Shown here: positions 8,325 through 32,000 of the stretch, one piece after another
Position numbering within the stretch: the stretch's first letter is position 1
How the letters are laid out: every line of letters begins with the position of its first letter
Assembly (NCBI RefSeq): GCF_014396165.1
Contig: NZ_CP060715.1
Coordinates: forward strand, 270,001 to 302,000
Length of the DNA: 32,000 nt
Direction of reading: 5' to 3'
From: Erysipelothrix inopinata
Lineage (GTDB): Bacteria > Bacillota_I > Bacilli_A > Erysipelotrichales > Erysipelotrichaceae
Translations under genes and position numbers: made by a program
Notes under the pieces: model-generated
The model's input: only the letters and a program-made list of their open reading frames with translations
The model's database searches: none
Told to the model about the DNA's origin: nothing

Positions 8325-10349
8325 TTAATCGTGGTACAAGTACCATTTCTTAATCCAAGGAAGGTTCTTCCACCATGTTTTAAGTTTTGGCATTACCCAG
8401 TAATCAAGACTTAATGTATTACCACCGAATAAGATTGCGATTCCTGCGAATAACATCCACATTGTATGGAGGTAAAGTCCTGTAGTCATCATGAACATTA
8501 ATTGTAATCCAACAGAGATTGCTCCGAAGAATGTTGTGAATAGACCTGCAATTAATGCAAGACCAATAACGATTTCTAATACAACAACCATTGCTTGCAT
8601 GAAGATTTGCATACCGTTACTTGATAAGATTACTGTATTTACAAACCAGTTCATCAATGGAACATTTAGTTTAAATGCAAAGTCAGTTAATTTCGCTGCT
8701 TCCAGTGTTGTTCCTGAAACTAAGATTGTTTGGAATAACCAGAAGTTCCAGTTCATTAATACTGTACCTGCTGCTGCTGCTCCACCTGTTGCTGCGCCTG
8801 TTGCCCCCGCTACCGCTTCTGCTGCGGCTCCAGTTGCTCCAGCTACTGCTTCTGCTGCTGCACCTGCTGCACCAGCTTGTGCTGCTGCTCCAGTTGTTAC
8901 GCCAAGAAGTCCGTCATACCAAGCTTGTGCTCCACCAAAGAATTTTTCTAATTGAGGAGTTCCTGATAACCAACCTTCTTGAACTTTCTTAACACCTTCA
9001 AATAACCAAACCATACCCAACCAAACTCGGATAGGGAATAACATAAAGCTTGGTGTACGGTTTGAGAAGTTACCACCCACAAAGCTACGTTTGTTACGGA
9101 TTGTAAAGATTTCATGTTTTAAGTAGCTGAATACTTTATTCCAGCCTAGAACTTGTACAAAGTAAACACAGTTCATCATATGTTTTGCAAACATTGCAAA
9201 GAATGACCATAAGTTAAATTCAACTTTACCAAGTTTAATATTTGCAGTTCCCCAACGACCACCGATACATACCATTGTACCGTGGAAGCTTGGTGTATAT
9301 GCTTTAAGATTTCCTGTTCCGCGAATTGATTCCGCAATGTTGTGAGCAACAAGTCCACCACTTTGTTCAGCGTTTTCAACCATTTGTGGTACAGGACGTT
9401 CTTCACCTTCTAATACGAAGTATGTGTTATCACCAACAACATAAACGTCTTCACGACCTTTTGCACGTAAGTATTGATCTGTTTCAATACGTCCTGCTCG
9501 TTGTGATGCTTCAAGTTCACTACCTGATTTGGATGTGATATCAGCACTTTCGATACCTGCAGTCCAAATAACTGTATGAACACTGTTTTCTTCAATTTTT
9601 CCATCAATATCTAAAGTAATTGATGAATCTGTAACTTTAATAACTTTAGCGTTTAGTTTGATTTCAACACCCATTTTTTCTAAACGGTTTTGAACTTTAT
9701 TCGCTAATTTCTCAGGTAAAGTCATAACTGTACGTGGCATTGCATCCACTTCTACAAGTGTAACTTCACTTGGTTCGATTGAGTATTTACTACATAATAC
9801 AGGAACGTATTCTGCAAGTTCACCCATCATTTCAACACCTGTAAATCCAGCTCCTACAACATAGAATGTAAGCAAGAAACGACGTTTTTCTTCATCAGGT
9901 TCTTGTGCAGCTTGTACAAATGTATTTGTAATATGTTGATGTAGATTTACGGCATCATCATATGACCACAATGTATGTGTGTGTTCTTTTGCACCTTCAA
10001 TACCAAAGTAAGTTGGTTTTGATCCTGCAGCAATGACAATATAATCATATTCATAGCTTTCGTGTGAACCCAATACAACCTTCTTATCAAAATCAATACT
10101 TTCAACGTTATCAAGTTTAACGTTAACATTACGACCTGCAAAAATTTTCGCTAAATCCATACGGATTGAGTACTCATCAACACGACCAGCAGCAACTTCA
10201 TGAAGTTCTGTTAACATCGTGCTAAATGGATTACGATCAATAATCGTAATATCTACAGCGTCTTGTTCTTTTTTAAATTTCTTAGCAAGTTTCTTCGCGG
10301 CTAAAATCCCGGAATAACCAGCCCCAACAACGACTACTTTCTTTCCCAT
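8325..10349 (-). CDS. Type II NADH dehydrogenase (NDH-2) fused to a C-terminal multi-pass membrane domain (FLEET Ndh2-like)
   Basis: ATG at 10349 (MGKKVVVVGAGYSG) lies behind AAGGAG; the ORF-track start at 10376 is TTG. Two Rossmann GxGxxG motifs are present (VGAGYSG, VGAGFTG), plus VYVVGDN. The C-terminal approximately 230 aa contain several TM helices and an Ala/Gly-rich loop. Confidence 0.85.
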   Translation of the reverse strand: MGKKVVVVGAGYSGILAAKKLAKKFKKEQDAVDITIIDRNPFSTMLTELHEVAAGRVDEYSIRMDLAKIFAGRNVNVKLDNVESIDFDKKVVLGSHESYEYDYIVIAAGSKPTYFGIEGAKEHTHTLWSYDDAVNLHQHITNTFVQAAQEPDEEKRRFLLTFYVVGAGFTGVEMMGELAEYVPVLCSKYSIEPSEVTLVEVDAMPRTVMTLPEKLANKVQNRLEKMGVEIKLNAKVIKVTDSSITLDIDGKIEENSVHTVIWTAGIESADITSKSGSELEASQRAGRIETDQYLRAKGREDVYVVGDNTYFVLEGEERPVPQMVENAEQSGGLVAHNIAESIRGTGNLKAYTPSFHGTMVCIGGRWGTANIKLGKVEFNLWSFFAMFAKHMMNCVYFVQVLGWNKVFSYLKHEIFTIRNKRSFVGGNFSNRTPSFMLFPIRVWLGMVWLFEGVKKVQEGWLSGTPQLEKFFGGAQAWYDGLLGVTTGAAAQAGAAGAAAEAVAGATGAAAEAVAGATGAATGGAAAAGTVLMNWNFWLFQTILVSGTTLEAAKLTDFAFKLNVPLMNWFVNTVILSSNGMQIFMQAMVVVLEIVIGLALIAGLFTTFFGAISVGLQLMFMMTTGLYLHTMWMLFAGIAILFGGNTLSLDYWVMPKLKTWWKNLPWIKKWYLYHD
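8763..8897 (-). repeat. GC-rich Ala/Gly/Thr low-complexity insert in the NDH-2 membrane domain, with a 2 x 33-nt tandem repeat at 8799-8864
   Basis: It encodes TTGAAAQAGAAGAAAEAVAGATGAAAEAVAGATGAATGGAAAAGT. The unit GAAAEAVAGAT occurs twice, back to back. Confidence 0.9.
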
Positions 10350-10392
10350 TTCATTCTCCTTTAATGTTGTAAACAACTATCTTGCATTCTAT

Positions 10393-10530: not shown

Positions 10531-12936
10531 TCAAACTGTAGGTTTCACTACTAAGTTCACAATTTTGTTTTTAATGACTATTTCTTTCACAACTGTCATT
10601 CCTTCAAGATTCTTTTGAACTTGAGGTTGTTCATAAACAAGTGCTTTCAATGCAGCTTCTTCAAGATTATTTGCGGCATTAAATTTAGCACGTACTTTAC
10701 CATTAATTTGAACGACAATTTCAACCTCATCAAGGACTAGTTTTGATTCATCGTATTGTGGCCAGGCAACGTAGCTAATACCTTCTTTACCTGTTAACAT
10801 CATGTAAAGTTCTTCGCCTAAGTGAGGTGCAAAACATGCTAACATCTTAACAAATCCAATCGCATATTCTCTGTAAACTGTTTCCACTTTATATGCTTCA
10901 TTTACAAAAATCATCAATTGAGAAATAGCAGTATTCATGCCAAATCCCTCAATGTCATGAGTTACTTTTTTAACGGTTTGGTTATAGACAAAGTCAAGGC
11001 TTCCATCATTTGTATCTACAATCTTATTTTCATCTTCAAGTAAACGCCACACACGATCTAACCATTTTCGAATTCCGTCAAGACCCCGTGTACTCCAGCC
11101 AATCGCGCCATCCAATGGTCCCATAAACATTTCATAAACACGTAACGCATCTGCACCATGACTCATAACGATATCATCTGGATTCACAACATTACCACGT
11201 GATTTGCTCATTTTTTCATTATTTTCGCCAAGAATCATACCTTGGTGGAACAACTTTTTGAATGGTTCTTTTGTAGTTACAACACCCAAATCGTAAAGCA
11301 CTTTATGCCAGAATCTTGCATAGAGTAAGTGAAGAACCGCATGTTCGGATCCACCGACGTAAAGGTCCACATTCATCCAATGTTCAAGTAATTCAGGATC
11401 TCCAATTGCTTCTTCATTGAATGGGTCGATATAACGTAAGTAGTACCAGCATGAACCAGCCCATTGTGGCATGGTATTCGTTTCGCGTACTCCTGTGCTA
11501 CCATCTGCAAACGTGACATTCAACCAATCTCCTGCATTCGCAAGTGGAGAGCGTCCATCACCCGCAGGTTTATAGTTATCAATTGCAGGTAATTCTAATG
11601 GCAAGTCTTCAAGGTCAACCGTACGCATTGTGCCGTCTTCCATATGAACGATAGGAATTGGTTCTCCCCAATATCTTTGACGTGAGAATAACCAGTCGCG
11701 AAGTTTATAGGTCACCTTAGGAGCACCATAACCATTTTCTTGTAACCATGCATTCATTGTTTCGATAGCTTCTTCTTTTCCTTTTCCATCTAGGAAATCA
11801 GAGTTAATGTGAACGCCATCGCCTACGAATGCTTCTTCCGTAATGTCGCCACCTTCAAGTACAGGAACAATTTCTAAATCATATTTTTTCGCAAATTCGT
11901 AGTCACGTTCATCATGTGCAGGTACTGCCATGATGGCACCACTACCATATGCTGCGAGAACATAATCAGCAATAAAGATTGGAACACGTTTTTTGTTTAC
12001 AGGATTAATAGCATAAGCCCCTGTGAAAACGCCTGTTTTTTCTTTATTTAGTTCTGTTCTTTCAAGATCTGATTTATGAGCCACCGCATCGACATACTTA
12101 TCGACTGCTTCTTTATTTTCAGCAGTAGTAATTTTCGATACAAATGGATGTTCTGGTGCTAAGACACAGTATGTGTTTCCAAATAAAGTATCTGCACGCG
12201 TTGTAAATACTGTAAACTCAAGATCGTGATTATCCACTTTGAAGATAACATCTGATCCAACTGATTTTCCAATCCAGTTTATTTGCATTTCTTTTGTTGA
12301 TTCTGGCCAGTCTACAAGCTCAAGATCTTCAAGTAAACGTTCAGCATATGCGGTAATTTTTAGTACCCATTGACGCATAGGAACTCGAATTACATCAAAT
12401 CCTCCAACCTCAGATTTACCATTAATCACTTCTTCATTCGCGAGTACGGTTCCAAGCTCAGGACAGAAGTTTACGGGTTTTTCATCAATATATGCTAATC
12501 CCATGTCATAGAGTTGTGTAAAGATCCATTGTGTCCACTTGTAGAATTGCGGATCAGTTGTCGATATTTCACGCGACCAATCATACGATAATCCTAACGC
12601 CTTAATTTGATCAGTAAAGTGCGCAATATTTTGCTTTGTAAATCCATCAGGATGATTTCCTGTCTTTAATGCAAACTGCTCTGCGGGTAATCCAAACGCA
12701 TCCCATCCCATCGGATGAAGAACATTAAACCCGTTCATTCGTTTGTATCTTGCAATGACATCAGTCGCTGTATAGCCACGTGGATGTCCAACATGAAGTC
12801 CGTTTCCTGAAGGATACGGGAACATATCTAAGATATAGTATTTAGGAATCGACATATTATGAACATCTGTCTTAAATGTTTCATTCTCATCCCAGTATTT
12901 TTGCCATTTTTTTTCTATTTTTAAATGATTATACAT
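10531..12936 (-). CDS. leuS: Leucine--tRNA ligase
   Basis: ATG at 12936 ([15 protein letters not shown]) lies behind AAGGAGG. Class I motifs are present: HVGH (in [12 protein letters not shown]) and KMSKS. The length of approximately 801 aa is typical of LeuS. Confidence 0.95.
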
Positions 12937-12953
12937 ATGAGCCTCCTTGATAA

Positions 12954-13173
12954 TAAAAAAAGTACCTGCATAAAGGACGAATGTCTCGCGGTACCACCTT
13001 AATTCCAACCAAATATTGGTTGACTCTCAAACCCGTAACGAGGGAAACGAAATTTCCTAATTAGTTCAGAAACTTAGCTCATGGATGAGTTCAATATGTT
13101 TCTTCTATCGACTTGCACCAACCGTCGATTCTCTTAGAGAAGATTAATATCTACTAGTTCCATTCATTGCTTT
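12954..13173 (-). promoter_or_regulatory. T-box riboswitch leader, Leu specifier (CUC)
   Basis: The minus strand carries the conserved T-box AATTAAGGTGGTACCGCG (12987-13004). The specifier-loop context is GAA-CUC-A, with CUC at 13087-13089. The terminator helix GTACC...GGTAC (12962-12994) is followed by a U-run (12954-12961), directly upstream of leuS. Confidence 0.85.
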
Positions 13174-13179
13174 GATTTA

Positions 13180-27298: not shown

Positions 27299-28642
27299 GG
27301 TAGTATAAAATATTTTGTGTAAACGTCTTGCGACGTGAAATAGAAAAAGGAAGTCATATCTTGTAGAATAAAGTTACTAGACAACATTCAAAAGGAGACT
27401 TCCCATGACTAATTTTAACACAGAACTTTATACTGCACTAGCCCAAGGAATATCATTGGATACTTTCATCAGAAGTGAGTTAGAAATTGCGATGAATCAA
27501 TTACTCCAAACAGAGCTGACTGTATTTTTAGACTATGAGCGATATGATCCAATTGGCTACAATAGTGGTAATTCTAGAAACGGAAACTATACTCGAACTG
27601 TTAAAACAAAGTATGGTGAAGTATGCCTTACCATACCACGTGATCGCAATGGTGATTTTAATCAACAAACCATTCCGCCTTACAAACGTCAGACTGATGA
27701 TTTAGAAACTACCATTCTTCAACTCTATTCTAAAGGCATCACCACTTCTGAAATTGCCGATTTAATTGAAAAAATGTACGGACATGCTTACACGCCACAA
27801 ACAGTTTCTTATATAACTCAAGCCATTGAAACTTCTGTTGATGAATTTCATAAACGATTACTTTCCAAGCGCTACCTTGCGGTTTATGGTGACTCAACTT
27901 ATCTAAATGTACGACGGGATTCTGTTTCTAAAGAAGCACTACATATTCTTATCGGCATCACTCCAGAAGGATATAAAGAAGTTTTAGATTATCGAATCTA
28001 TCCACAAGAATCAGCTGATAATTATCGTGAGATGCTTAAGGACATACAAATGCGTGGTTGTGAAGAAGTTTTGTTGTTTATCACTGATGGACTAACAGGT
28101 ATTCGAGATGCCTGTTTAGAAGTGTATCCGAAAGCAATGCACCAAACGTGTTGGGTGCATTTACAGAGAAACGTTTCACGCTTGGTGCGAGCAAAAGATC
28201 GTAAAGAAATTTTAGAACAATTGAAACCTGTTTATCAGGCAACTGAAAAATCAGTAGCGATCGACTTGCTGGAAAACTTCAAAGCATCGGTTAAGAAACG
28301 ATATCCGAAGGTTGTAGCTATGTTTGATAAAAACAAAAGTTTGTTTGAATTTTTAGATTTTCCAAGACAAATTCAGAGAAGTTTATATACAACAAACTTA
28401 ATTGAAGGATTCAATAAGCATCTAAAGCGGTATACTCGTCGCAAAGAACAATTTCCTAATGAAGAGTCACTCGACCGTTTTGTATGCTCTCAAGTGATTG
28501 AATACAATCACAAAGGCATTCGTAGGATTCATAAAGGATTTGATATAGTACAGTCTGAAATTGAAACATTATTTGAAGAAAAATACCATTAATAATTTTC
28601 TTCTACAAGAAACGATGTTTACACAAACTTCTTGACGCTACC
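27299..28642 (+). mobile_element. IS256-family insertion sequence, 1344 bp, apparently intact
   Basis: The terminal inverted repeats are GGTAGTATAAAATATTTTGTGTAAAC and, as the reverse complement of the right end, GGTAGCGTCAAGAAGTTTGTGTAAAC (20/26 identical, ungapped). A single transposase ORF and 8-bp direct repeats flank the element. Confidence 0.9.
27405..28592 (+). CDS. IS256-family (Mutator-type) transposase
   Basis: AAAGGAGA RBS. At 395 aa it has the typical family layout, with the CWVHLQRN motif region and the D...D...E spacing. Confidence 0.9.
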   Translation: MTNFNTELYTALAQGISLDTFIRSELEIAMNQLLQTELTVFLDYERYDPIGYNSGNSRNGNYTRTVKTKYGEVCLTIPRDRNGDFNQQTIPPYKRQTDDLETTILQLYSKGITTSEIADLIEKMYGHAYTPQTVSYITQAIETSVDEFHKRLLSKRYLAVYGDSTYLNVRRDSVSKEALHILIGITPEGYKEVLDYRIYPQESADNYREMLKDIQMRGCEEVLLFITDGLTGIRDACLEVYPKAMHQTCWVHLQRNVSRLVRAKDRKEILEQLKPVYQATEKSVAIDLLENFKASVKKRYPKVVAMFDKNKSLFEFLDFPRQIQRSLYTTNLIEGFNKHLKRYTRRKEQFPNEESLDRFVCSQVIEYNHKGIRRIHKGFDIVQSEIETLFEEKYH

Positions 28643-28650
28643 TATCACTA
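28643..28650. repeat. Right 8-bp target-site duplication TATCACTA
   Basis: It is identical to 27291-27298. Confidence 0.85.
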
Positions 28651-28746
28651 ACCATTCATAAGTTACAACTTTCATTTAGTTTATATTAAGATTATTCATT
28701 TCGTTATAAGTATGTAATTAAAGTTATTCGAAATGTAATGAATTAC

Positions 28747-28779
28747 AAGAAAAAAGCCTCATTTTTTAAGATGAGGCTT
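28747..28779 (-). terminator. Intrinsic terminator after the LURP-one-like gene
   Basis: The minus strand reads AAAGCCTCA-(10 nt)-TGAGGCTTT, followed by TTTTCTT. Confidence 0.8.
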
Positions 28780-28804
28780 TCATTAATATTTGTATTGGCT
28801 AATC

Positions 28805-29317
28805 TTATTGTGCTGAGGTTGAGCTCGATGAAGAATTATGACTTGAAGAACGATCTTTCTCGATTTCATTATCGACAACAATTGCGACACATAGTGCAAG
28901 TAATTGATACTTTTCATCAAGTATGTTCAATTCATAGCTATCACCCCATGTAAACCAATGTTTACGAAGCGACATGACAGGTGCTTTCCCATCTACTATC
29001 GAGTAGTTGTGTGACATGTAGTCACCTTTCAACTTCCAGTTTGTTCCTTCGATTTGGAATTTTTGTTTGAACATTGTGAAGTTTCGTTTGATGACAACGC
29101 TTGGTTGGCCTTCAATTGTAATCTTGTAATGAGCCATAATTTTCAACATTTGTCTCTCAATAGTTGCTACTTTTTTACCCGATTGATCGGTAATCGTAAA
29201 TTTCTTAGGAATTCGCATAAAACTTCCCTTAACCCAATAAACATCTTCATTGAATTCATTACGAACTGTGAATGATTCACCGATTGTAAAAACTTTTTGT
29301 TTGATATATAGTTTCAT
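28805..29317 (-). CDS. LURP-one-related / YxjI-like (tubby C-terminal-like fold) protein with a Ser-rich tail
   Basis: AAAGGAG RBS. The N-terminus MKLYIKQKVFTIGESFTVRNEFNEDVYWVKG and the repeating beta-hairpin pattern are typical of the family. The C-terminus is SSSHNSSSSSTSAQ. Confidence 0.7.
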   Translation of the reverse strand: MKLYIKQKVFTIGESFTVRNEFNEDVYWVKGSFMRIPKKFTITDQSGKKVATIERQMLKIMAHYKITIEGQPSVVIKRNFTMFKQKFQIEGTNWKLKGDYMSHNYSIVDGKAPVMSLRKHWFTWGDSYELNILDEKYQLLALCVAIVVDNEIEKDRSSSHNSSSSSTSAQ

Positions 29318-29338
29318 TTTTGAATCTCCTTTTAAACT

Positions 29339-29347
29339 ATTATATCA
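29339..29347 (-). promoter_or_regulatory. Extended -10 element (TGaTATAAT) upstream of the LURP-one-like gene
   Basis: The minus strand reads TGATATAAT, about 20 nt upstream of the ATG at 29317. The -35 is weak. Confidence 0.45.
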
Positions 29348-29374
29348 CTGTGACAGGATGTCTTTGATATCTTT

Positions 29375-31426
29375 TTAATTATTATCTAAGAGATTTTTTA
29401 CAAGTGATTCTGGAACAACGTCATAGCGAACTAATGTTTCCTGGTAACTACCACTACCCTGAGTCATCGAACGCAAATCAGCAACATATTTTTTCACTTC
29501 AACTTTAGGTACTTCTGCTTGAATCAATTGAAGTTGGTTTTCAAGAGCATCAACGCTTAGGATAACACCACGTCTTTTATTTAAATCTCCCATAATTGTA
29601 CCCGTAAAGGATTCGGGTACGGTAATCTCAAGTAAAACAATGGGTTCTAAAAGTTGAACTGTCGCTTTCTCCATAGCATCAAGATATGCCAAACGAGCAG
29701 CCTGCTTAAAGGCAATCTCTTTGGAATCAACATCATGATATTTACCATCTACAAGTGTTGCTTTGACACCAACCACTTTATACCCTGCTAGCACGCCTTT
29801 AACCATTGCTTCACGAAGTCCTTGTTCTACGGAGCTAAAGAATTGTTTTGGAACTGCACCACCGACGACACGCGTTTCGTAAACCATATCCTCGCAATCC
29901 CAAGGTTCAAACTCGATAAAGACATGACCAAACTGACCAGCCCCTCCCGTTTGTTTCTTATGTCTACCCTCACCGGTTACTTTATTTCTAATTGTTTCGC
30001 GGAAGGCAACTTTTGGTTCCGTTACATTCACAGTTACACCATATTTATCTTTAAGTTTTGTAATGAGTGAATCCAGGTGTTGATCTCCCAATCCATATAG
30101 GATCTGTTCCAATGTTTCAGGATTTTTTTCAAAACGCGCACCACAATCCTCTTCCAGAACTTTACTCAAAGCCATGCTAAGTTTGTCTTCATCTTTCTTT
30201 GTTTCAGGTTGAATCGTAACACCCAATAATGGTTGCGGAATATCGGGACTATCATAAATTATTTTACAATCCGATGCTGCAAGCGTATCGAACGTTTTAG
30301 TGCTTTGAAGTTTCGTTACCGCTCCAATATCTCCGGAAAATAATTTACCAACTCCTATTTGATATTTACCATTGATACTAAACACTTGGTTAATAGTTTC
30401 TGTTTCTTGTTGATTATTATTTGTTACTTCAGAATCAGCGCTGAGTACCCCACTCATTACTTTTAAGTAACTAATCTTTCCTACAAAGGGGTCAACAATA
30501 GTTTTAAATACTTGTGCACTAAATACTTCATCTTCTTGAGTTCGCAGGGTAATTTCATTTCCTTTTCGATCCTTACCCGTTACGGTTCCTTTTTCTTGAT
30601 AACTTGGAAAGTACTCTGTAATGAGATCAAGGAGGCGACGCATCCCAATCCCTGCATTGGCACTTCCACAATAAACAGGACGGATATCTCCGCTTCGAAC
30701 ACCAAGAGAAACACCTTTCAAAATATCCTCTTCTGATAAGTTTCCCTTATCAAAATATGTTTCCATCAACTCATCATCAGTCATTGCAACTGCTTCACAA
30801 ATTTCTTCCCAATGAATTGCTACTTGATCGGCATATTCTTCAGGAACTTCATGAGGTTTTTCAGGATGATCGTAGTACCATACCTTCTTACTTAATAAAT
30901 TAATACTTCCGATAACAACACCTTTTTCTCGAATTGGTATCTCAAATGCAATGACACTTTTTCCGAATGTTTCTCTTAACGTCTCATAGGCTGTGTGGAA
31001 ACTAACATTTTCATCATCCATTTTATTGACGAAGAAAATAGTGGGTTTGTTTTCTGATTCAACCCAACGAAATGCGGACTTCGTGCCCTCATCCACACCA
31101 TTTTTACCATCAACTACAATTAAGACATTATCCCCAACACTCAGTCCCGATAAAGTTTCCGCTACAAAATCTGCATATCCAGGTGTATCAATACAGTTAA
31201 TTTTACAGTCTTGCCACTCAATTGGTACCATCTTTAAAGATAACGTTTGACCCCTTTTTATTTCTTGGGGTTCAAAGTCAATTGAAGATTGACCACTCTC
31301 TGCTGAGACAATTCGATCTATTTGTTTAGCTTCTAACATCATGGATTGAATCACTGAACTCTTACCACTTCCGTTATGTCCCAGTACTGCTAGGTTTCTT
31401 ACATTCTCGCTTCTATAGTCTTTCAT
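29375..31426 (-). CDS. Elongation factor G paralogue with DTPGY in place of DTPGH
   Basis: G1 is GHNGSGKS, switch I is RGQT, G3 is DTPGYADF, G4 is NKMD and G5 is GSA. The domain IV strings KKQTGGAGQFGHV and DGKYHDVDSKEIAFKQAA are EF-G-like. The protein is 683 aa. Confidence 0.85.
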   Translation of the reverse strand: MKDYRSENVRNLAVLGHNGSGKSSVIQSMMLEAKQIDRIVSAESGQSSIDFEPQEIKRGQTLSLKMVPIEWQDCKINCIDTPGYADFVAETLSGLSVGDNVLIVVDGKNGVDEGTKSAFRWVESENKPTIFFVNKMDDENVSFHTAYETLRETFGKSVIAFEIPIREKGVVIGSINLLSKKVWYYDHPEKPHEVPEEYADQVAIHWEEICEAVAMTDDELMETYFDKGNLSEEDILKGVSLGVRSGDIRPVYCGSANAGIGMRRLLDLITEYFPSYQEKGTVTGKDRKGNEITLRTQEDEVFSAQVFKTIVDPFVGKISYLKVMSGVLSADSEVTNNNQQETETINQVFSINGKYQIGVGKLFSGDIGAVTKLQSTKTFDTLAASDCKIIYDSPDIPQPLLGVTIQPETKKDEDKLSMALSKVLEEDCGARFEKNPETLEQILYGLGDQHLDSLITKLKDKYGVTVNVTEPKVAFRETIRNKVTGEGRHKKQTGGAGQFGHVFIEFEPWDCEDMVYETRVVGGAVPKQFFSSVEQGLREAMVKGVLAGYKVVGVKATLVDGKYHDVDSKEIAFKQAARLAYLDAMEKATVQLLEPIVLLEITVPESFTGTIMGDLNKRRGVILSVDALENQLQLIQAEVPKVEVKKYVADLRSMTQGSGSYQETLVRYDVVPESLVKNLLDNN

Positions 31427-31441
31427 ATTAAGCCATCCTCA

Positions 31442-32000
31442 CTAAACTAAATACTGTTTCAATGTTTCGAAATCATGCTGTCTTACATAATGAATCGCCA
31501 AACGATCCTCGTCATCTTTAATTGTAATATCAGCATCCGAATCTACAAGAAATTTAATCAATTCTTCATAACCTGAGTATGCTGCTCTCATTAACGCTGT
31601 GCAGCCATTAGCGTCACGCTCATTAACGTTTGCTTGATGACGAACAAGATACTTGATAATGTCCATTTGGTACGCCAGCGTTGCTTCCATGAGCGCTGTA
31701 CGACCTAACGTATCTTTAGCATTAACATCGGCGCCATTTTCAACAAGTAACTTAACGATATCTAAATGACCTAAGAAACTTGCTCTCATTAATGCAGTGC
31801 GACCTTTTTCATCTTGAAGATTAACATTTGCACCTGCTTTAATTAATAAAGCAACAATATCAAGATGGCCCTTCTTAGCTGCACTCATTAAAGCATCTTT
31901 ACCAAAAATATCGAGTGCATTTACATCGGCATTATGATCAATTAAAAATCTTACGATATTTGTATGGCCACGTTTTGCACTTCTCATTAATGCGGTACGA
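31442..32000 (-). CDS. Ankyrin-repeat protein (5' end lies outside the window)
   Basis: At least five tandem 33-aa units fit xGxTALMxAxxxGHLDIVKLLxxxGAxVNxxD. The frame stays open to the window edge (RTALMRSAKRGH...). The stop lies 15 nt upstream of the EF-G-like ATG. Confidence 0.85.
   Translation of the reverse strand, partial: RTALMRSAKRGHTNIVRFLIDHNADVNALDIFGKDALMSAAKKGHLDIVALLIKAGANVNLQDEKGRTALMRASFLGHLDIVKLLVENGADVNAKDTLGRTALMEATLAYQMDIIKYLVRHQANVNERDANGCTALMRAAYSGYEELIKFLVDSDADITIKDDEDRLAIHYVRQHDFETLKQYLV

Follow-up and report, generated by a model that had tools for sequence, protein, structure and literature searches.

What does a homologue of the elongation factor EF-G do once tyrosine has replaced the catalytic histidine of its GTPase centre? 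This question is raised by a gene in a 32,000-nucleotide (nt) stretch of the Erysipelothrix inopinata genome (contig NZ_CP060715.1, positions 270,001 to 302,000; hereafter the window), where an open reading frame (ORF) on the minus strand (29375..31426, ATG start) encodes a protein of 683 residues. Judged by its motifs and its phylogenetic placement, this protein is an EF-G homologue of the EFG II (EF-G2) type. With moderate confidence we explain the locus as a whole as encoding an EFG II factor that would spare GTP hydrolysis, made from an operon together with an ankyrin-repeat protein and controlled through a cre-like box and a leader.

Reading the minus strand across positions 31160-31195 gives GAT ACA CCT GGA TAT GCA, which translates as D80-T-P-G-Y84-A. 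The G3 motif (switch II) therefore ends in tyrosine (D80-T-P-G-Y84, 31175..31189, minus strand; TAT at 31175-31177) where the catalytic histidine is expected. We aligned the protein by MAFFT within a set of 162 sequences, in which reference proteins were added to the 150 representatives (clustered at 50% identity, from 1.84 billion proteins) that lie closest to it. In this alignment Y84 shares a column with the catalytic His87 of Thermus thermophilus EF-G, as well as with Tyr84 of T. thermophilus EF-G-2 and Ser84 of Bacteroides thetaiotaomicron EF-G2. Direct reading and alignment thus bear out an earlier note on this DNA, which had drawn attention to DTPGY with a TAT codon in an EF-G homologue. 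Five EF-G domains score above the Pfam cut-off in the window protein (GTP_EFTU, EF-G_D2, EFG_III, EFG_IV and EFG_C).

The tyrosine is not the only change in the GTPase centre. The P-loop (G1; GHNGSGKS, residues 16-23, 31358..31381, minus strand) differs from the canonical AHIDAGKT by replacement of Ala by Gly, of the gate residue Ile21 by Asn18 and of Asp22 by Gly19 (T. thermophilus numbering first), and it ends in Ser instead of Thr, as it does in many members of the clade. Switch I (G2; R58-G-Q-T-L62, 31241..31255, minus strand; canonical RGITI) retains the Mg-coordinating Thr and carries Gln60 in place of the second gate residue, Ile63 of T. thermophilus EF-G; the consensus of the family at this motif is RGxSx. 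In contrast, the guanine-specificity motif G4 (NKMD, residues 134-137, 31016..31027, minus strand) and the G5 motif (G254-S-A256, 30659..30667, minus strand) are intact, with no variation at N134, K135 and D137 across 39 members of the family. The nucleotide-binding elements that are kept comprise Lys22, Ser23, Thr61, Asp80, DxPG, NKMD and GSA. The earlier description of a protein of the EF-G paralogue type with an intact nucleotide-binding scaffold and a changed P-loop is supported, and the remodelling extends to the gate Ile of switch I. The altered P-loop and switch positions correspond to the hydrophobic-gate and sarcin-ricin loop (SRL)-facing residues of EF-G (bioRxiv 10.64898/2026.05.25.727771).

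The ribosome-binding body has been preserved by contrast, including the end of domain IV, which extends into the decoding centre. Loop I of this domain (HKKQTGGAGQFGHV, residues 489-502, 29921..29962, minus strand) contains ten positions that are invariant among the 39 family members (H489, K490, K491, Q492, G494, G495, G497, Q498, G500 and V502), and loop II (DGKYHDVDSKE, residues 560-570, 29717..29749, minus strand) contains six (G561, H564, V566, D567, S568 and K569). H564 aligns with H573 of T. thermophilus EF-G. All motifs quoted in the earlier note are present (GHNGSGKS, NKMD, GSA, KKQTGGAGQFGHV and DGKYHDVDSKEIAFKQAA), including those of domain IV, but the statement that the latter match canonical EF-G almost residue for residue needs correction. 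Loop I of canonical EF-G reads F/Y-I-R/K-Q-S/T-GGRGQYG, whereas HKKQTGGAGQFG of the window protein better fits the EF-G2 signature H/Y-KKQ-S/T-GG-x-GQ-F/Y-G. The corresponding loops are HKKQSGGAGQFG in B. thetaiotaomicron EF-G2, which shares the loop I motif with the window protein in the form HKKQSGGAGQFGEV, and YKKQTGGHGQYG in T. thermophilus EF-G-2. Taken at the sequence level, the window protein keeps the nucleotide-binding scaffold and the whole ribosome-binding body including the domain IV tip, and is without the entire apparatus for ribosome-activated hydrolysis of canonical EF-G, since other residues stand in place of the His, of the P-loop Asp and of the two gate Ile.

To which group of EF-G homologues does this protein belong? 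The best NCBIfam model is NF009381 (PRK12740.1-5, an "elongation factor G" subfamily), which passes its cut-off of 583 with 803.5 bits over the full length of the protein (residues 1-681 against model positions 1-683 of 692). The model for canonical EF-G, TIGR00484, fails with 557 bits against a cut-off of 659, and the three canonical motifs AHIDAGKT, RGITI and DTPGH are all altered. Two EF-G2 models fail as well: NF009377 ("EF-G-like protein EF-G2" equivalog) with 548 bits against 890, and NF058620 (Bacteroidetes EF-G2) with 511 bits against 1000. The window protein is therefore no orthologue of those EF-G2 groups and belongs only to the wider EFG II. As defined by Margus et al. (2011), EFG II proteins have a G1 motif of the form GhxxxGKT and conserved DxPG, NKxD and gSAx motifs, whereas G2 is relaxed, with RGITI lost and Ser or Thr kept at the fourth position (RxxSI in the Clostridia subgroup) (PMC3150367). 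The corresponding motifs of the window protein, GHNGSGKS, RGQTL, DTPG, NKMD and GSA, conform to this description.

A neighbour-joining tree gives the same assignment. With a bootstrap value of 100/100, canonical EF-G stands apart in it from a side that holds the window protein, T. thermophilus EF-G-2 (1WDT), B. thetaiotaomicron EF-G2 (7UVP) and all other sampled non-canonical relatives, and the Erysipelotrichaceae clade is also recovered with 100/100; as a distance tree of 66 taxa (687 columns, 100 bootstraps) it draws on a similarity-selected sample with only 5 canonical sequences. The gene context also differs from that of canonical EF-G, which lies in rpsL-rpsG-fusA-tuf: neither rpsL, rpsG nor tuf occurs near the EF-G2 gene in the window or at any related locus. 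Because genomes with a single EF-G copy always have EFG I in a published survey (PMC3150367), a canonical fusA would be expected elsewhere in the genome. The kind of factor represented by EFG II/EF-G2 is already known, and its loss of the His has been documented structurally and biochemically; the NF009381 subfamily itself is uncharacterised.

The earlier note held that all ribosome-activated GTPases keep the His. This is too broad, as His loss is the rule in the EFG II/EF-G2 proteins described so far. Scoring of the catalytic column across the 162 relatives, as that note had proposed, gave Y78 F35 D12 L8 H8 A5 N4 T4 S4 E2 Q1 M1, which makes Tyr the most frequent residue (78/162). Tyr or Phe together account for about 70%, and the remainder is almost anything but His. 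Five of the eight His bearers are canonical EF-Gs (two PDB chains, P0201, P0259 and P0262) that carry, or come close to, AHIDAGKT and DTPGH. Among 80 loci from GTDB species genomes that were picked by similarity (Clostridia, Oscillospiraceae and others; 40-57% identity), His is absent throughout; the motif is readable at 79 of them, and the remaining locus is truncated. The survey of the 162 relatives speaks for a family-wide abandonment of catalysis activated by the SRL. The presence of Y, F, L, D, N, S or A at the position argues that it is not catalytic in the family, and the preference for aromatic residues suggests a role in packing.

The remaining three His bearers, P0171, P0239 and P0242, fall on the non-canonical side of the tree. 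They have His after DxPG, yet their P-loops are non-canonical (for example GQRGCGKT with DCPGH). The His of these proteins could be a retention or a reversion inside a His-less group.

Could the tyrosine be an artefact, that is, a sequencing error, a strain-specific mutation or a mark of a decaying pseudogene? We examined the 120 best homologues from a collection of 5.8 billion proteins (54-100% identity; the named sources are all Erysipelothrix or Erysipelotrichaceae). DxPGY occurs in 119 of them and Cys takes the place of Tyr in 1; no orthologue carries His, contrary to what would be expected if the TAT codon were a peculiarity of this strain. The P-loop is of the GHxxxGK[ST] type in all 120. 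An independent assembly from another sample (a Logan assembly, L087), which at 98.2% DNA identity over window positions 28643-32000 represents the same species, has the same TAT codon. Between the two assemblies the EF-G2 gene remains an intact ORF in which 25 codon changes are synonymous and a single one (D513E) is not, which indicates that the gene is under purifying selection. In ten relatives the tyrosine is encoded by TAT or TAC about equally often. The L087 codon, the homologues and the 25:1 ratio rule out a sequencing error or a strain-specific change, and we regard an artefact of any of these kinds, for which nothing spoke, as practically negligible. Tyr84 is selected at the protein level.

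With the residue secured, we turned to EF-G systems that have been characterised. T. thermophilus EF-G-2 (1WDT/2DY1), whose sequence we checked against PDB entry 1WDT (100% match, residues 8-665), resembles the window protein in having five domains and DxPGY with Tyr at residue 84. It has a similar P-loop (GHAGSGKT, with DAPGY) and a domain IV loop of the KKQTGG type, and it falls on the same side of the tree. It differs in carrying TKLD and an altered G5 where the window protein keeps NKMD and GSA, in having no known ankyrin partner, whereas the window gene adjoins an ankyrin gene, and in a score of 357 bits to the window protein, which is lower than that of canonical EF-G (about 464-472 bits). 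According to a published account, T. thermophilus EF-G-2 binds GTP, hydrolyses it and functions in poly(Phe) synthesis (PMC3150367).

B. thetaiotaomicron EF-G2 (fusA2, BT_2167; 7UVP/8DMF) is likewise without the catalytic His (Ser84, DCPGS), has a non-canonical P-loop (GSSGSGKT) and shares the HKKQ-S/T-GGAGQFG loop of domain IV with the window protein. It differs by its length of 718 residues, by an insertion of ~30 residues in domain IV and by YGYSV in G2, and neither an ankyrin partner nor a leader attenuator has been described for it. It is described as enabling GTP-independent translation (PMC10294740) and as the product of the gene most strongly induced on carbon limitation (PMC10294740, PMC10994844). 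Its induction runs through a regulator of carbohydrate utilisation, a logic that the cre-like box of the window operon also suggests; this regulator is Cur/BT4338 and not CcpA acting on cre. The EF-G2 chain of 7UVP and 8DMF carries the PDB molecule name "Tetracycline resistance protein TetQ", which can mislead similarity-based annotation.

In Mycobacterium smegmatis EF-G2 (9K0Z/9K10), the His has also become Tyr (Y98) and the SRL-contacting residues of the P-loop have been replaced; these residues are taken from the preprint that describes the protein (bioRxiv 10.64898/2026.05.25.727771). Unlike in the window protein, both G4 (TKLD) and G5 are degenerate; the similarity between the two amounts to 390 bits, in two stretches. 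The preprint reports that this factor is non-essential and linked to stress, that it lacks GTPase activity dependent on the ribosome, that it is not competent for translocation or ribosome recycling, and that in EF-G1 of M. smegmatis little ribosome-dependent GTPase is left after the H88Y exchange. Canonical EF-G (EFG I; 1DAR, 7PAO) is the best-scoring solved relative of the window protein at 472 bits, and the two agree in length, domain order, NKMD, GSA and the cores of domains IV and V. The difference lies in AHIDAGKT, RGITI and DTPGH of canonical EF-G against GHNGSGKS, RGQTL and DTPGY of the window protein.

These comparisons make it plausible that the ribosome-activated GTPase of the window protein is weak or absent. 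The earlier note had predicted this from the tyrosine. The prediction of an impaired GTPase is reasonable in light of M. smegmatis EF-G2 and the H88Y variant, but it cannot be read from the tyrosine alone, because T. thermophilus EF-G-2 reportedly hydrolyses GTP with Tyr84 in place. Most likely, in our analysis, the window protein combines EF-G-like ribosome binding and weak or no SRL-triggered hydrolysis with slow translocation, or with modulation of translation, when nutrients are limiting. According to this model the protein would bind GTP and the ribosomal A site as EF-G does, the SRL would fail to trigger hydrolysis efficiently, and when nutrients are scarce the protein would be a slow alternative factor for translocation, or for the modulation of translation, that spares hydrolysis, as reported for B. 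thetaiotaomicron EF-G2.

Two other activities have to be weighed against this model. A GTP-locked factor might park on, or block, ribosomes or 50S subunits under stress and not promote translocation, in the manner proposed for M. smegmatis EF-G2. That the catalytic His is gone together with the P-loop Asp and the two gate Ile residues would suit such a role, as would the lack of ribosome-dependent GTPase and recycling activity, the regulatory stress function and the 50S-bound structure of the Tyr98-containing M. smegmatis protein, and the starvation-linked expression that the cre-like box suggests. We nevertheless consider a parking factor rather unlikely, since the family shows no variation in the tip loops of domain IV, on which translocation depends, and M. 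smegmatis EF-G2 has additionally lost G4 and G5 whereas the window protein keeps NKMD and GSA. The His-less B. thetaiotaomicron EF-G2 is moreover described as supporting GTP-independent translation. For the same reasons of invariant tip loops and of the Bacteroides precedent, the proposal of the earlier note that the protein stalls on the ribosome instead of translocating is unsupported.

Alternatively, the window protein could still be an active GTPase, perhaps with higher intrinsic activity, as reported for T. thermophilus EF-G-2; it would then be a translocase or recycling factor of an ordinary kind, an alternative one that differs in its kinetics or in when it is used. The GHxGSGKT and DxPGY motifs are identical in T. 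thermophilus EF-G-2, G1, G4 and G5 of the window protein are intact, and the strict conservation of Tyr in the clade through both of its codons could mean that the residue has an active role. A catalytic role is hard to reconcile with the wider family, where Phe, Leu, Asp, Asn, Ser and Ala are freely accepted at this position. Together with the near abolition of M. smegmatis EF-G1 GTPase by H88Y and with the changes to the hydrophobic-gate and SRL-contacting P-loop residues, this makes an active GTPase quite improbable in our estimate. The preferred reading thus stays that of a hydrolysis-sparing factor.

If the factor is used only under particular conditions, how is it produced? The EF-G2 gene is preceded by a gene for a protein that consists entirely of ankyrin repeats (31442..32000, minus strand; Pfam Ank). 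It ends 15 nt upstream of the EF-G2 start, and the gap after its stop codon contains the Shine-Dalgarno sequence of the EF-G2 gene (GAGGA, 31436..31440, minus strand) 9 nt before the ATG. The ankyrin gene runs off the window, which holds its 3' 186 codons; the first 110 nt lie outside, and the full length of 222 residues is known from L087. Its counterparts are located at L087:5317-5985 (same species) and, in relatives, at L001:9323-9991, L002:5301-5969, L003:5320-5988, L004:4323-4991 and L006:4320-4991, and further ones occur in L091-L093. The window gene is 63% identical to its equivalent in Erysipelothrix sp. HDW6C, and the part inside the window differs from L087 by 13 nt and by no amino acid.

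An ankyrin orthologue of 222-223 residues precedes EF-G2 by 9-30 nt at 16/16 Erysipelotrichaceae-type loci. These loci are drawn from the window, L001-L009, L051 and L087-L093 and include several near-duplicates, so that about 14 are distinct. The genes flanking the pair are otherwise unrelated between these loci, and since the linkage is kept while the flanking genes differ, the pair looks like a conserved two-gene operon in which the ankyrin gene is the likely partner of EF-G2. The other Bacillota lack the ankyrin gene at each of the EF-G2 loci examined (about 70), and a search for a conserved neighbour at EF-G2 loci outside the Erysipelotrichaceae returned only patchy, lineage-limited ones. 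We propose that EF-G2 would be made from this two-gene operon together with its dedicated ankyrin protein of 222 residues, which on the strength of gene linkage is a probable binding partner, chaperone or regulator of EF-G2. Our literature search on the pairing of ankyrin proteins with EF-G returned nothing relevant.

Two gene families recur in the surroundings of the pair. A gene for an Fe/Mn superoxide dismutase lies downstream on the opposite strand in L002, L004/L005, L092 and L093, and a DEAD-box helicase gene lies upstream in L003, L004 and L093 (divergently oriented in L004 and L093). This recurrence may reflect a stress-related neighbourhood, or simply residual synteny.

The promoter, the cre-like box and the leader of the operon lie past window position 32000 and are known from L087 and other relatives. 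The leader, from promoter to ankyrin gene, occupies L087:5168-5316, with equivalents in L002, L003, L004, L006-L009, L051, L088 and L091-L093. Its first element is a cre-like box (TGTAATCGGTTACA, L087:5168-5181) that overlaps the -10 sequence TACAAT of a sigma-70-like promoter. The box fits the cre consensus TGWAANCGNTNWCA, established in Bacillus subtilis, at every position. Equally perfect boxes are present near the operon promoter at 8 distinct loci (L087, L002, L003, L004, L088, L092, L093 and L051), and versions with 1 mismatch occur at other loci. In L087 and its closer relatives the box overlaps the -10 sequence, and in L051 it lies about 290 nt before the ankyrin start. By chance ~0.12 matches would be expected per 32 kb; there are 0 in the window and only a handful elsewhere in the 93 loci that we fetched. 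The position of the box suggests CcpA-type catabolite repression of the ankyrin/EF-G2 operon, so that induction would follow once the preferred carbon source runs out.

Downstream of the promoter and cre box, the region contains, in this order, a leader ORF, a terminator, and the Shine-Dalgarno sequence and ATG of the ankyrin gene. The leader ORF has 22-33 codons and a strong Shine-Dalgarno sequence, and the sequence of its peptide is not conserved. The terminator consists of a GC-rich hairpin followed by a T-run, with the ankyrin Shine-Dalgarno sequence and ATG 20-40 nt further on. Compensatory changes were found in all 6 consensus pairs of the hairpin, which is missing in L001. The distance between the stop codon of the leader ORF and the terminator foot falls in the range of -2 to +9 nt at 9/11 loci and at 3 further loci. 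This abutment suggests translation-coupled attenuation, and the leader ORF with its terminator is a candidate attenuator of this type: once it had reached the end of the leader ORF, a ribosome would cover the 5' arm of the hairpin, and read-through would depend on ribosome occupancy at that site. Hence, the cre box is consistent with induction when the preferred carbon ends, and the leader with control by ribosome occupancy. In RNAfold predictions, the leader Shine-Dalgarno sequence, the spacer and the start codon additionally pair with bases of the leader ORF that follow 40-60 nt downstream. This pairing is seen in L087, L088, L002, L003, L004, L008, L009 and L092, where the partner changes along with the spacer, and the predicted stem may sequester the Shine-Dalgarno sequence.

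RNAalifold applied to the leaders recovered the terminator only. Rfam gave no gathering-level match near the ankyrin/EF-G2 genes in the window or at 9 related loci, and a known RNA element upstream of the operon was rejected on this ground; the matches elsewhere in the scanned loci were limited to the T-box at leuS, a TPP riboswitch and tRNAs. The leaders of Escherichia coli pyrBI and of tet(M) on Tn916 are translation-coupled attenuators. The operon leader resembles them in that a short ORF preceded by a Shine-Dalgarno sequence extends up to or into an intrinsic terminator, where a ribosome would occlude the 5' arm of the hairpin. It differs from them in its unconserved peptides, in the absence of a detected antiterminator and in the lack of an Rfam match.

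This resemblance raises the possibility that the gene encodes an antibiotic ribosomal-protection factor (Tet(M)/Tet(O)-like, or directed at another inhibitor) that is induced through a leader-peptide attenuator. The upstream leader ORF and terminator appear similar to the attenuators of resistance genes that act at the ribosome, such as tet(M) and ABC-F genes, and Tet-family models do match the window protein significantly, though below threshold. The scores are far under the Tet cut-offs: NF012153 (tet_protect) reaches 301 bits against 775, and the models for Tet(M), Tet(Q) and Otr(A) reach 171-210 bits against cut-offs of 900-1425. We therefore rejected a ribosomal protection protein by this measure. 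Moreover, the domain IV loops are EF-G/EF-G2-like, and the whole family has the gene in its chromosomes, vertically conserved, with a cre box and not as part of a mobile element. A protection factor is thus very improbable, and we return to the EFG II factor with its ankyrin operon and its cre and leader control.

Several observations weigh against this explanation. T. thermophilus EF-G-2, with the same Tyr84, reportedly hydrolyses GTP and supports poly(Phe) synthesis (PMC3150367), and M. smegmatis EF-G2 is described as a stress-related regulator and no translocase (bioRxiv 10.64898/2026.05.25.727771); because the latter is reported to be a regulator, the family has no single agreed function. 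Canonical EF-G, at 472 bits, scores higher with the window protein than the solved EF-G2s do (357-390 bits), which fits the fast, long-branched evolution of EFG II (PMC3150367), and deep EFG II monophyly is argued from a similarity-selected sample and a neighbour-joining tree. What points to a physical interaction between the ankyrin protein and EF-G2 is gene linkage only. The cre box and the leader stand outside the window, the role of CcpA is putative, and the box is weak or absent in L007-L009. We detected no conserved antiterminator in the leaders: folded without the 3' arm of the terminator, they gave no consistent pairing of the 5' arm, and the antiterminator alternative was rejected for this reason.

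A bolder version of the explanation would make EF-G2 and the ankyrin protein an obligate two-protein module, in which the partner (as loader, chaperone or switch) replaces hydrolysis-driven release. Switched on by relief from CcpA/cre repression and by ribosome occupancy at the leader stop, which would mask the terminator, the module would provide Erysipelotrichaceae with a starvation-specific, energy-sparing mode of translation whose protein cofactor has no counterpart among described EF-G paralogues. We offer this only tentatively. The ankyrin partner and the leader/cre layout are undescribed as far as we could find, and they are the only elements of the locus that could raise its interest.

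The flagged residue by itself is no discovery, since EF-G2-type paralogues normally have another residue in place of the His, as seen in 1WDT, 7UVP and 9K0Z. The function of EF-G2 is unsettled: the T. thermophilus protein is reported as active, that of M. smegmatis as inactive and regulatory, and that of B. thetaiotaomicron as capable of translocating slowly and independently of GTP. For this problem the Erysipelotrichaceae clade is a compact and testable system, with a strict Tyr, intact G4 and G5 motifs, a probable ankyrin partner, a cre-like box and a candidate leader attenuator. If confirmed, the ankyrin partnership would be the first protein cofactor for any EF-G paralogue, and Gram-positive catabolite control would be tied to an alternative mode of elongation, in parallel to Bacteroides.

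On its downstream side, the EF-G2 gene is followed after 57 nt by a gene for a LURP-one-related protein of 170 residues (PF04525; 28805..29317, minus strand). The gap contains no terminator, and the gene is possibly co-transcribed with EF-G2. It differs from its L087 counterpart by 3 amino acids, compared with 1 for EF-G2 and 0 for the ankyrin part. Because the gene is specific to this species, present in L087 but not beside EF-G2 in the other relatives, it probably stands outside the core module. A hairpin resembling an intrinsic terminator follows (28752..28781, minus strand), with a stem of 11-12 bp and a T-run on both strands, and is the likely end of the transcription unit.

Just beyond this terminator lies an insertion of the IS256 family (1344 bp, 27299-28642; transposase ORF 27405-28592, plus strand). 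Its terminal inverted repeats are imperfect (GGTAG...TTTGTGTAAAC), and the target duplication (TATCACTA) measures 8 bp. The insertion is strain-specific, since the site is empty in L087 of the same species. A second ORF of 683 residues in the window (8325-10376, minus strand) was considered as canonical fusA and rejected, since it belongs to the pyridine nucleotide-disulfide oxidoreductase family; the equal length is coincidental. Finally, the window contains a T-box leader (Rfam RF00230, 155 bits; 12970-13176, minus strand) upstream of the gene for leucine-tRNA ligase (10531-13008, minus strand).

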